Shown here piece by piece: positions 5,442-7,242 of a stretch of 64,000 nucleotides of DNA. Source of the DNA: Escherichia phage PMBT57. The notes beneath the pieces are model-generated. The model had not been told where the DNA came from. It saw nothing but the letters and a program-made list of their open reading frames with translations, and searched no databases. Within the stretch, counting starts at the first letter, position 1, and each line of letters opens with the position of its first letter. The DNA lies in the sequence record MG770228.1. One strand, 5' to 3'. The translations under genes and the position numbers were made by a program.

Positions 5442-6239
5442 ATGAGCAATTTATTCGGAAATCTGGCAGGTCAGGCAGCTAAAGCAGAGAAAGCAACGGA
5501 TAACCTGGGTGGCGGATTTGGTGCAAAAGAATCTGACATTTATCTGGCTACCCTGAAAGTAGCTTATGCAGGTAAAGCAGCTTCTGGTGCTAACTTCATT
5601 CAGATTATTGCAGACCTGACTGACCTTGATGGACACAGTGCTGGTGAATATCGTGAGCAACTGTACATCACTTCTGGTACTGAAAAAGGCTGCAAGTGTA
5701 CTTATGAAAAGAATGGTAAGGAATACTTCCTGCCAGGCTACACTGTAATCAATGACATCCTGGTAATGACTTCTGGTGAGACTATTCCTGAAGCAGTCTT
5801 CGAAGAGAAAGTCGTTAACGTATATGACTTCGATGAGAAGAAAGAAGTTGCCAAATCTGTCATGGTTCCAGTCAATGCTATCGGTGGTAAGTTTGCTGTA
5901 GCTATTCTGAAATCTGAAGAAGATAAGCAGACTAAAGATGGCTCCGGTAACTATGTGTCTACTGGTGAAACTCGTTTCACTAATACCATCGAAAAAGTAT
6001 TCCACCCTGACCTGCATCTGACTGTTGTTGAAGCAGAAGAACTGACTGAACGTGGTAAAGAACTGACCGTTGAAGAAGCAGTCTTTTGGGACAAATGGCT
6101 GGAGAAAAACAAAGGCGTTACCCGTGACAAAACCACTAAAGGCGGTGCTTCCGGTAAAGCTGGTCAGCCACCAAAACCAGGTGCTACTAATACTGGTGCG
6201 GGTGCTTCTGCTGCAAAATCTCTGTTCGGTAAGAAATAA
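5442..6239 (+). CDS. gp45: single-stranded DNA-binding protein / late-transcription activator
   Basis: 265 aa, the same length and position as N4 SSB. Has an AGGAAA RBS and a Gly/Ala/Lys-rich flexible C-terminus ending SLFGKK. Confidence 0.8.
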   Translation: MSNLFGNLAGQAAKAEKATDNLGGGFGAKESDIYLATLKVAYAGKAASGANFIQIIADLTDLDGHSAGEYREQLYITSGTEKGCKCTYEKNGKEYFLPGYTVINDILVMTSGETIPEAVFEEKVVNVYDFDEKKEVAKSVMVPVNAIGGKFAVAILKSEEDKQTKDGSGNYVSTGETRFTNTIEKVFHPDLHLTVVEAEELTERGKELTVEEAVFWDKWLEKNKGVTRDKTTKGGASGKAGQPPKPGATNTGAGASAAKSLFGKK

Positions 6240-6796
6240 TGCAGATACCTGTGCTTGGAGTTGACCCCAGTTTTCGTAACTGGGGACTAGCACGGGGAAT
6301 GCTCGACTTAGAGACGGGAATACTCTCTGGATTAGACCTGAAGCTGGTAGAAACCAAACCTGATGGAACCAAGCAAGTAAGGCAGAACAGCAAAGATATG
6401 CAAGCTGCTGAGGACATTACTACTGGTGTCATCGACTGGTTCAAAGAAGCAAAGGTCATCTTTGTAGAGGTTCCCGTTGGCTCACAAAGTGCCAATGGAA
6501 TGAAATCCTATGGTGTTTGTGTAGGCATCTTAGGAGCACTCAGGGCACTAGGACATGAGATTATTGAAGTTACTCCTATCGAGAACAAAGTAGCTCTGTC
6601 CGGTATTAAGACTGCTTCTAAAGATGTGATGATTAGAGCAGCTACAGGATTTTATCCAGAGGCCAACTGGCTCACGGATACCAAAGGTAGGCTGCTCAAT
6701 AAGAACGAGCATTTAGCTGATGCTGTAGGTGCTATCCATGCAGGGGTACTCACTCCTGCTTTCCAGAATTTAATGAGAATTTTATCAAAGGTATAA
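6239..6796 (+). CDS. RuvC-like (RNase H fold) Holliday-junction resolvase candidate
   Basis: 185 aa with a TAATG overlap with SSB. Motifs VLGVDPSFRNWG (RuvC GIDPG-like), IFVEVPVG (Glu) and EHLADAVGAIHAG (C-terminal acidic/His). Confidence 0.6.
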   Translation: MQIPVLGVDPSFRNWGLARGMLDLETGILSGLDLKLVETKPDGTKQVRQNSKDMQAAEDITTGVIDWFKEAKVIFVEVPVGSQSANGMKSYGVCVGILGALRALGHEIIEVTPIENKVALSGIKTASKDVMIRAATGFYPEANWLTDTKGRLLNKNEHLADAVGAIHAGVLTPAFQNLMRILSKV

Positions 6797-6798
6797 CA

Positions 6799-7242
6799 AT
6801 GCAAGTAATCCTGACCCAACCTGAAATCGAAGCTGCTCTGACTGGTTATGTAAACGACCTGATGTCTGTACGTGAAGGCATGGAAATTAAAGTAACCTTC
6901 AAAGCTACTCGTGGTGATGATGGTGCTACTGCAATCGTAGATATTGTCCCTGCTGGTTCCCAATCCGTTGAAGTGGTTGAGGAACCAAAGAAAGAGTCAA
7001 AGGAACGCAAGCATCGTCCCGTAACCCAGACCAATACTGCTGCTGTCAGTGCTCTGGCTTCTGCTACTGGTAAGAAAAAAGAAGAAGTAGTTGAAGTAGA
7101 AACTACTACTGAAACTGTTGATGAAACTGTAGAAGTAGCTGAAGAAGCTGCTGCTCAGGAAGAAGAAAAAGAAGTACAGGAAGAAGAGGCTAAAGAACCA
7201 GTACAGGCCAAACCTTCTCTGTTTGCAGGTCTGAAACGTTAA
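6799..7242 (+). CDS. acidic Glu/Lys-rich protein, function unknown (N4 gp47 position)
   Basis: 147 aa. A compact N-terminal ~55-aa domain is followed by an E/K/V low-complexity tail ending PSLFAGLKR. Confidence 0.75.
   Translation: MQVILTQPEIEAALTGYVNDLMSVREGMEIKVTFKATRGDDGATAIVDIVPAGSQSVEVVEEPKKESKERKHRPVTQTNTAAVSALASATGKKKEEVVEVETTTETVDETVEVAEEAAAQEEEKEVQEEEAKEPVQAKPSLFAGLKR

Follow-up and report, generated by a model that had tools for sequence, protein, structure and literature searches.

The SSB and a resolvase-linked acidic protein of an N4-like phage end in conserved, co-varying SLF tips

The C-terminal tip of bacterial single-stranded-DNA-binding proteins (SSB-Ct; ...DDDIPF in Escherichia coli) is a hub for genome-maintenance proteins, in which a short acidic peptide with a critical, terminal Phe closes a disordered linker and serves protein-protein contact, not DNA binding. 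The SSB of phage T7, gp2.5, carries an acidic C-terminal tail that is similar to that of gp4 and contacts T7 DNA polymerase. The C-terminal tails of gp4, the helicase-primase, dock on the same polymerase (PMC8472574). Look-alike tails paired in this way imply that docking on one receptor is shared or contested. The SSB of phage N4 acts in replication, recombination, and late transcription, as has been known for thirty years, and its C-terminus has been singled out. Residues at the C-terminus of N4 SSB are reportedly essential for the activation of late transcription, and the protein contacts the conserved C-terminus of the beta-prime subunit of host RNA polymerase, which is not phage-encoded and is the sole receptor experimentally backed for this tail (PMC4496689). 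In phage HK620, the last six SSB residues (NDYPPF) are needed to load the RecA-like protein Sak4, whose gene adjoins the SSB gene, on SSB-coated ssDNA (PMC5928155).

Here we describe a two-protein tip system that extends the known SSB-tip principle in a new variant. The window, a stretch of 64,000 nucleotides from Escherichia phage PMBT57 (MG770228.1), shares 99.8% identity with phage vB_Eco_AL25 and 98.4% with N4, and its three genes considered below, all on the forward strand, therefore correspond to gp45, gp46, and gp47. The first of these (5442..6239, ORF call) encodes the N4-type SSB of 265 aa; gp46 (6239..6796), whose start overlaps the SSB stop (TAATG), encodes a RuvC-like Holliday-junction resolvase (PHROG 159, E=5e-40); and gp47 (6799..7242, ORF call) encodes an acidic protein of 147 aa with a pI of 4.6. 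The last of these matches the profile PHROG 7641, itself of unknown function, over its full length (residues 1-147, E=8e-42), and a Pfam search gave no match for the SSB, gp46, or gp47. Directly 5' of the SSB gene, gp44 (4641..5396, forward strand) encodes a RecA-like/Sak4-like ATPase (Pfam AAA_24, E=9e-12; PHROG 124 Sak4-like, E=4e-45), and it adjoins the SSB gene in all annotated relatives examined. The window thus has the same Sak4-like-SSB gene pair as HK620, although HK620 has an acidic-type tip and no described second protein that bears it, and the two SSB families are unrelated in sequence.

A first-pass annotation of this DNA had claimed that the SSB and gp47 share a tail motif behind a flexible linker, and both parts of the claim stand. 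The SSB ends in ...GAGASAAKSLFGKK and gp47 in ...EPVQAKPSLFAGLKR (ORF calls), with AKSLFGKK (residues 258-265; 6213..6236) as the SSB tip and QAKPSLFAGLKR (residues 136-147; 7204..7239), closing on KPSLFAGLKR, as the gp47 tip. The linkers that display these tips differ in kind, the SSB linker (residues 231-257; 6132..6212) being Gly/Pro/Lys-rich with a net charge of +3 and that of gp47 (residues 54-135; 6958..7203) Glu-rich with a net charge of -12. Both are disordered in AlphaFold2 models, with pLDDT below 50 at residues 235-259 of the SSB and 57-132 of gp47; in gp47, the linker values of 40 to 50 rise to 59 to 71 over the tip. A third copy of the motif, absent from the first-pass annotation, lies at the SSB N-terminus, which reads MSNLFGNL (residues 2-8, SNLFGNL; 5445..5465; family consensus MSLFGNLK) and in which F5 is invariant in the SSB alignment. 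When a position-specific scoring matrix (PSSM) of the gp47 tip was scanned against 120 SSBs, this N-terminus was the second-best site in 100 of them and the best in six.

The SSB tip resembles the SSB-Ct in that a short, conserved peptide with a critical Phe (residues 258-265) stands at the extreme C-terminal end of a disordered linker, with a putative role in protein-protein contact instead of DNA binding. It differs in chemistry, since AKSLFGKK is basic (net +3) and its Phe is fourth from the end. Acidic residues before the hydrophobic end are absent from the window tip and occur only in the lineage of phage FBKp27 (GDDPFTL), where both tips have turned to D-D-P-F and so approach the bacterial form. 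Nor does the Phe carry the free carboxylate of the SSB-Ct, as three residues follow it in 76 of 120 SSBs and a single residue follows it in PA26, VBP32, L073, and L075. The window tip departs from the SSB-Ct further in also being carried by a non-SSB protein and in having a related copy at the SSB N-terminus. As in T7, a single phage has like tails at the ends of two of its proteins, the SSB being one of the pair, but the T7 tails are acidic with a C-terminal Phe whereas those of the window have a basic S-L-F form, and the second carrier is a helicase in T7 and a resolvase-associated protein here. A non-acidic SSB tip would appear able to do what the classical acidic tip does.

A match of two tips within a single genome would by itself be only modestly significant, the pattern [ST][LI]F occurring in the last 25 residues of about 2% of arbitrary ORFs (78/3931); at the level of sequence, it is conservation that settles the matter. 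Across 80 related loci, the pattern is present in 76 of 80 SSB and 67 of 73 gp47 ORFs, and no third family carries the motif at its C-terminal end within 10 kb on either side of the SSB gene. No other real gene in the window ends in SLF; a virion structural protein and an Rz-like spanin (...RKLFE) have LF near their ends, in both cases with neither the linker nor the SLF motif. Both tips are conserved across the Schitoviridae, as seen in 120 SSB homologs and in representatives of gp47 clusters. In the SSBs, whose family pattern is [KRG][KPT]SLFG[KG]K, the L-F pair (L261 and F262 in the window) is found in 120/120 and the Ser at -2 in 110/120. Among the gp47 representatives, clustered at 50% identity, 142/143 carry the tip, with [LI]-F in 142/142 and S-[LI]-F in about 139/142 of the tips and a family pattern of [KR]xS[LI]F[AG][GN]L[KR..][KR]PxN. 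In an alignment of 41 diverse gp47 sequences, F142 is the sole invariant column, and the linker is hypervariable in both sequence and length. A full-text literature search for the tip peptide strings (SLFGKK, SLFAGL, and the like) returned no relevant paper.

The conserved core has a partial counterpart in the motif that binds the bacterial beta-sliding clamp, QL[S/D]LF, in which L4 and F5 are key positions and Gln1 is among the three most important (bioRxiv 10.64898/2026.05.27.728225). If the tips were variants of this motif, they would dock on DnaN, the host clamp and likewise a hub for several clients, and so bring in both the SSB and the resolvase module. The [S/D]-L-F core equals positions 3-5 of the consensus, and the conservation of L-F (120/120 SSB) and [LI]-F (142/142 gp47), with Ser at position 3 in 110/120 and 139/142, falls on these positions; the CB4 tips QSDLF and VLDLF come near QLDLF, and many clamp motifs also lie in terminal disordered segments. 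We nevertheless consider this reading very unlikely, given that Gln occupies position 1 in 0/120 SSB and 0/142 gp47 tips and that position 2 is non-aliphatic (K/P/T/N/Q in the SSB and R/K/P/Q in gp47). Gln1 and an aliphatic position 2 are both missing from all 262 tips examined, and the canonical clamp-binding motif was rejected on these two positions. Genomes of the N4 type have no annotated clamp gene. In N4, gp8 inhibits the clamp loader of the host, and replication of the phage is not known to need host Pol III.

Joint conservation of the two tails across N4-like phages, on which the first-pass annotation had made its proposal depend, is accompanied by co-variation from lineage to lineage. 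The tips of the SSB and gp47, respectively, read SLFGKK and SLFAGLKR in N4, ASLFS and GSLFS in PA26, TSLFG and QSLFG in VBP32, SLFDD and SIFDVD in RPP1, SDLFL and LDLFS in CB4, and PTKSLFAK and PTKSLFARN in SP-076; the Klebsiella phages FBKp27 and Pylas have DDPFTL with DDPFANFD and KSLFSK with RSLFART. Loss of the Ser at -2 from the SSB, in five lineages, always coincides with its loss from gp47 (Fisher p=4.6e-6), and an end one to three residues after the Phe coincides in 9/9 cases (p=2e-5), although the genomes are related and so not fully independent in either comparison. Identical tip residues mostly differ in codon, as in SP-076, where seven identical residues share only two identical codons. 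Gene conversion between the tail-coding segments is thereby ruled out as the cause of the co-variation, and matching residues written in different codons point to selection instead. Given that each phage keeps its two tips alike, a single receptor pocket most likely accommodates both. The tips differ outside S-L-F, however, and the conserved gp47 extension x-G/N-L-K/R-K/R-P-x-N is missing from the SSB in most lineages, so the two tips could bind overlapping but different sites.

These patterns bear on whether the tips have a common partner at all. The motif is short, and basic-hydrophobic C-termini can be degradation signals, so the resemblance might be inherited from a common ancestor or reflect some generic role of C-termini, as degrons for a protease, for instance, or as weak anchors to membranes or nucleic acids. 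Co-variation through basic, truncated, and acidic flavors with synonymous divergence demands a common selective constraint, however, a host-protease degron would keep its flavor between phages of one host, and the Phe is near-absolutely conserved amid hypervariable linkers; we regard a partnerless tip as highly improbable. The flavors differ between the two Klebsiella phages and among three phages of P. aeruginosa, each phage being internally matched, and judged from these sequences tip flavor tracks the phage lineage and not the host. The receptor is thus most likely phage-encoded.

A second line of evidence comes from the position of gp47, which is present at every locus of sufficient length and always lies directly 3' of a Holliday-junction resolvase gene (two RuvC-like types or a RusA-like type) or is fused to RusA. 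The order SSB, gp46-type RuvC, gp47 is found in 59 loci, the window included; RusA::gp47 fusions occur in 11 loci and a separate RusA gene followed by gp47 in four. The RusA domain is confined to the fused relatives, where it is N-terminal to the gp47 module. In L073, PA26, CB4, and Presley, the resolvase gene is displaced from the SSB gene and gp47 moves with the resolvase, and in Vibrio phages, gp47 is paired with a different RuvC type. Because the second tip sits on a protein adjacent or fused to a resolvase, a function in DNA metabolism is indicated. From the gene order and from the fusions to the unrelated RusA, we infer that the N-terminal domain of gp47 associates physically with the RuvC-like resolvase. 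This domain (residues 1-53; 6799..6957; within the PHROG 7641 match, E=8e-42) is modeled by AlphaFold2 with pLDDT 80 to 87 as a helix and two strands (H7-21, E28-35, and E44-51), and a search of the PDB for folds like that of the gp47 model gave no match at E<=0.001, the best hits being noise. We rejected gp47 as a Holliday-junction resolvase in its own right, as no nuclease domain with catalytic acidic residues was recognized in it: it has no Pfam domain and no match to gp46. The C-terminal end of gp46, TPAFQNLMRILSKV (conserved as TPxFQNLMRL), was considered as a fourth copy of the motif; its gp47-tip PSSM score stands only at the 0.8% null level, and we therefore treat it as a separate amphipathic helix and do not count it.

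The resolvase linkage also weighs on the proposal that the docking site of both tips is the C-terminal region of beta-prime in host RNA polymerase, with gp47 as a competitor or co-activator of SSB-dependent late transcription. The first-pass annotation had implicated the N4 SSB C-terminus in late-promoter activation, in agreement with the review literature, and the reportedly essential C-terminal residues and the contact with the conserved beta-prime C-terminus speak for such a receptor (PMC4496689). The S-L-F core is kept in phages of alpha-, beta-, and gamma-proteobacteria, as expected of a very conserved host target, and in other phages, replication-linked proteins use tails to activate late transcription, as with the T4 clamp (PMC7892883) and, for Mu, the beta-clamp (PMC12867686). 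A transcription decoy, on the other hand, offers no reason for gp47 to be tied to three kinds of resolvase and fused to RusA. The flanks, moreover, switch between basic, absent, and acidic within one host species and yet are matched in each phage, a pattern not expected of a host surface that is fixed and conserved. On these two grounds, beta-prime appears somewhat disfavored as the main receptor, and we judge the proposal as a whole unlikely.

The receptor could instead lie in the SSB itself. BRC repeats mimic the self-association motif of RAD51, and the N-terminal segment of T4 gp32 is one case of a tail-mediated SSB filament. PrgE of plasmid pCF10 and P12 of phage PRD1 likewise form filaments through terminal tails (PMC11137577, PMC11886824). 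Like these three, the N4-type SSB is a monomeric OB-like SSB, with terminal peptides that could bind a neighboring protomer; none of the three systems has a second, tail-copying protein. By analogy, the SLF termini would bind neighboring SSBs in cooperative ssDNA filaments, and gp47 would mimic the peptide and so hang the resolvase on SSB-coated DNA. The window SSB has an OB-like core with PrgE as its best structural match and bears the motif at both ends, and a receptor inside the SSB would easily explain tip-receptor co-evolution and the lineage flavors. The AlphaFold2 monomer, however, docks neither terminus on the core (pLDDT 56 to 63 at the N-terminal end and below 50 at the C-terminal end), co-variation with the C-terminal tips is only partial for the N-terminal copy, and the reported role of the C-terminus in a transcription activation independent of DNA binding is left unexplained. 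We hold this reading to be a tentative possibility, short of probable. As the gp47 tip also has no defined structure and no docking in cis in its monomer model, the models give no pointer to a receptor.

On balance, we think it somewhat probable that the tips are a shared docking peptide and that gp47 is a flexible resolvase tether bearing the address of the SSB, with a receptor that is probably phage-encoded. The SLF peptide would be a short linear docking motif whose Phe, together with the Leu before it, makes a hydrophobic plug. Charged residues that vary by lineage would flank this plug, and disordered tethers would present it at the C-termini of the SSB and of gp47 and, as a related version, at the SSB N-terminus. 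A second tip-bearing protein at the docking site of the SSB was the core idea of the first-pass annotation, and co-conservation and lineage-wise co-variation appear to support it. The second protein would, however, serve the phage Holliday-junction resolvase as its tether and would not be a free-standing regulator; its small N-terminal domain would accompany the resolvase, and a long acidic leash would connect this domain to the tip. The resolvase might thus be delivered to, or compete for, the place that the SSB engages, namely replication and recombination intermediates. Candidate receptors would be the neighboring RecA-like gp44, the SSB core in a tail-mediated filament, or another replisome protein.

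A broader form of the idea, which we rate as quite unlikely, makes the SLF tip a private, lineage-specific address code that uses the logic of the cellular SSB-Ct with inverted chemistry. It would join three processes at one receptor, at which gp47 competes with the SSB: SSB-coated intermediates, junction resolution by gp46/gp47 or RusA::gp47, and activation of host RNA polymerase at late promoters. Were this true, the receptor might be beta-prime after all, and the load of branched DNA would time late transcription and packaging. The way in which one N4 SSB tail serves three processes gains handles from the tip on a resolvase partner, from the co-evolution of the tips in every Schitoviridae lineage, and from their natural flavors. 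The basic, truncated, and acidic forms would permit partners to be identified with matched and mismatched peptide pairs.

The tether gives a first plausible role to gp47, whose family has no annotation and exceeds 2000 sequence clusters. An exhaustive profile search retrieved 2351 clusters at E<=1e-3 and made the family visible, and a word-indexed protein search based on the gp47 alignment contributed no more than seven further sequences. A separate observation, made beyond the first-pass annotation, concerns the N4 reference record, which has a 1-nt deletion in an A-run of the gp47 linker (at about position 7166 of the window). The resulting frameshift removes the tip from gp47 in the annotation of the N4 GenBank record.

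The window belongs to an N4-type coliphage and shares 99.8% identity with vB_Eco_AL25 and 98.4% with N4; in it, SSB (gp45, 5442-6239), a RuvC-like resolvase (gp46, 6239-6796) and the acidic protein gp47 (6799-7242) follow a RecA-like or Sak4-like ATPase (gp44, 4641-5396). SSB and gp46 overlap at their stop and start codons (TAATG), and two bases separate the gp46 stop from the gp47 start, so SSB, gp46, and gp47 form one tightly coupled unit. As the first-pass annotation had pointed out, SSB (ending ...GAGASAAKSLFGKK) and gp47 (ending ...EPVQAKPSLFAGLKR) carry similar tips behind flexible linkers, and AlphaFold2 indeed predicts disorder (pLDDT below 50) ahead of both, at residues 235-259 of SSB and 57-132 of gp47. 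The SSB linker is Gly/Pro/Lys-rich, whereas that of gp47 is Glu-rich. We found no such C-terminal ending in further real genes of the window.

All 120 SSB homologues listed, with identity down to 40%, end in [KRG]-x-S-L-F-G-(K/G)-K or a near variant, and the L-F of the tip is present in 120 of 120. The gp47 relatives have only three things in common: an N-terminal domain of ~50 residues, a hypervariable linker, and a tip of the pattern [KR]-x-S-[LI]-F-[AG]-[GN]-L-x-[KR]-P-x-N, whose Phe is the sole invariant column in an alignment of 41 sequences. An exhaustive profile search (E<=0.001) gave a gp47 family of 2351 clusters, and the tip is present in 142 of the 143 new representatives examined. 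Both families are restricted to Schitoviridae with genomes of roughly 70-78 kb that infect alpha-, beta-, and gamma-proteobacteria. Across 80 related loci, [ST][LI]F lies within the last 25 residues of 76/80 SSB and 67/73 gp47 ORFs, compared with 78/3931 other ORFs, all unrelated and mostly antisense frames; no third family with a C-terminal [ST][LI]F was found within +-10 kb in these loci.

The first-pass annotation had proposed asking whether the two tails are conserved together in N4-like phages; they are, and the agreement is stronger than that, as departures are paired too (SSB/gp47: PA26, ..KPASLFS/..GGSLFS; VBP32, ..ATSLFG/..KQSLFG; RPP1, ..KASLFDD/..KSSIFDVD; Presley, ..KRQFFKR/..RKTVFGKR; CB4, ..GQSDLFL/..KVLDLFS; SP-076, ..PTKSLFAK/..PTKSLFARN; Pylas, ..TKSLFSK/..TRSLFART; FBKp27, ..GDDPFTL/..EDDPFANFD; locus L070, ..SGLFQKK/..RGLFSGLKK; locus L075, ..KKSLFA/..KKSLFA). 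Over 70 distinct tip pairs, the Ser two positions ahead of the Phe has been lost from SSB in 5 cases and from gp47 in 8, and all 5 SSB losses fall in pairs whose gp47 lacks it too (Fisher p=4.6e-6); where gp47 ends within three residues of the Phe (9 cases) SSB always ends short as well (p=2e-5). Both values, uncorrected for phylogeny, are upper bounds on significance, the genomes being related. Because the substitutions differ from case to case, these cases arose separately. For the residues that they share, the two tips mostly rely on different codons (of seven such residues in SP-076, only two have the same codon), so the likeness is due to selection acting on the peptide sequences, not to exchange of DNA between the genes.

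One reason that the gp47 tip has gone unnoticed is the N4 GenBank record (EF056009), which lacks one nucleotide of the gp47 A-run (about 4766 in N4 locus L081) relative to the window (about 7166) and all relatives. The annotated N4 gp47 is consequently frameshifted, with 144 aa ending ...KKYRKKRLKNQYKPNLLCLQV and no SLF tip, although the coding sequence of the tip persists further downstream in another frame. The missing base reflects either an error of sequencing or a mutation of the laboratory strain. In AlfredRasser, a close N4 relative (L087 18487-21761), the DNA polymerase gene is annotated as two joined segments that flank a putative homing endonuclease gene, suggesting an intron or intein-like insertion.

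A third copy of the motif stands at the SSB N-terminus (MSNLFGNL in the window, MSLFGNLK in most relatives), where F5 is invariant. A scoring matrix built only from gp47 tips found its best site in SSB homologues at the C-tip in 114/120 and at the N-terminus in 6/120; the N-terminus was second best in 100/120. This copy (SLFGNLK) is closer to the gp47 tip than the SSB C-tip is, and in divergent lineages it co-varies only partially with the C-tips.

The order SSB, gp46-type RuvC-like resolvase, gp47 is found in 59 loci, window included. In four loci a separate RusA-like resolvase takes the place of gp46 ahead of gp47, and in 11 (L010, L040, L041, L044, L045, L047, L051, L065, L067, L071, and L074) a single polypeptide comprises RusA domain, gp47 domain, linker, and tip, with matches to RusA-like PHROG families (E down to 1e-37). 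This is non-orthologous displacement at one locus, a RusA-like resolvase fused to the gp47 module replacing the RuvC-like gp46, and it is seen also at L084 4849-5751, L091 4243-5085, and L093 4190-4987; in some public records the entire fused protein bears just the label RusA. In the Vibrio phages VBP32 and D283b the partner of gp47 is another type of RuvC, and where SSB and resolvase are set apart by intervening genes (L073, PA26, CB4, FBKp27, Presley, and Pylas) it is the resolvase that gp47 accompanies. Every locus extending far enough encodes gp47 with its tip. That gp47 neighbours resolvases of three unrelated or distant types, and is fused to RusA in some loci, identifies it as a resolvase accessory. 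We found no nuclease domain in gp47 and no solved structural relative of its small N-domain, which consists of a helix and two strands (pLDDT 80-87). A domain followed by a long leash and a tip is the architecture of a tether. Gene order and the fusions suggest that the N-domain associates with the RuvC-like resolvase. The gp46 family has a conserved amphipathic C-terminus, TPxFQNL[ML][RK]L (residues 171-185, 6749-6793), right after the catalytic ...EHxADAxxAIHAG, that could contact this domain; it is tip-like (F-x-N-L), but the gp47-tip matrix scores it only at the level of 0.8%. The gp47 homologue of Acinetobacter phage Presley (gene 72, L085 5843-6484) ends ...AKRTFGARKTVFGKR, with two tandem tip-like motifs.

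On their flexible tethers, SSB and the resolvase partner display a hydrophobic plug that is conserved and co-evolves. The closest concepts are the bacterial SSB C-terminal tip and the T7 pair gp2.5/gp4. T7 gp2.5 contacts polymerase through an acidic tail similar to that of gp4. The gp4 acidic tail likewise contacts polymerase (PMC8472574). Unlike these systems, the window tips have an inverted chemistry, being basic and with a Phe that is not the last residue; their second carrier is a putative resolvase tether, and both ends of SSB bear the motif. The two chemistries are interchangeable solutions, as the FBKp27 lineage demonstrates, which turned both tips into D-D-P-F. A full-text search for the tip peptide strings found no relevant paper, and we rate the arrangement as a new form of the known SSB-tip kind.

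Both tips would insert into the same receptor pocket, and the resolvase would therefore be delivered to, or compete at, the place of SSB engagement. Our first preference is a phage replication or recombination protein. By analogy, gp44, which adjoins SSB, would be the most attractive, because in HK620 the loading of Sak4 on SSB-coated ssDNA depends on the six C-terminal residues of the cognate SSB (PMC5928155); the title of Choi et al. 1995 (cited in PMC4496689) describes N4 SSB as required for recombination. We place second the SSB core, the tips serving as filament contacts mimicked by gp47, for which PrgE and PRD1 P12 are precedents, although the tips do not dock in the SSB monomer model. 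Host RNA polymerase beta-prime ranks third, as the only partner of the N4 SSB C-terminus implicated by experiment (PMC4496689). The host beta clamp comes last: [S/D]-L-F matches positions 3-5 of QL[S/D]LF, but all 262 of 262 tips lack Gln1 and an aliphatic position 2, and a clamp gene is not annotated in this genome type.

Tip flavour bears on this choice. Among Klebsiella phages, Pylas has basic tips whereas those of FBKp27 are acidic; each of the P. aeruginosa phages PA26, PA152, and ZC03 has a flavour of its own, and N4 (E. coli) and CB4 (Pectobacterium) differ also. Since phages of one host differ while the SSB and gp47 tips match within each, flavour follows phage and not host. This speaks for a receptor encoded by the phage, or at least against the flanks being fixed by one invariant host surface.

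In the acidic-tip lineage (CB4, L086; FBKp27, L090), an HNH endonuclease gene is inserted between the Sak4-like gene and SSB, and a small gene lies between SSB and resolvase; CB4 has it annotated as Mu Gam-like, whereas in FBKp27 it carries no annotation. Just downstream of gp47 the window has four tRNA genes (Asn-GTT, Ser-TGA, Thr-TGT, and Pro-TGG; 7573-8251), and the mechanical ORFs 7587-7784 and 7606-7743, which overlap them, are not genes. Directly behind gp47 lies a single-pass membrane ORF (54 aa, PHROG 19025, 7257-7421); such proteins of about 50-65 aa follow gp47 in many Schitoviridae (L075 3506-3700, L068 6706-6888, L086 6473-6652, and L088 5356-5508).
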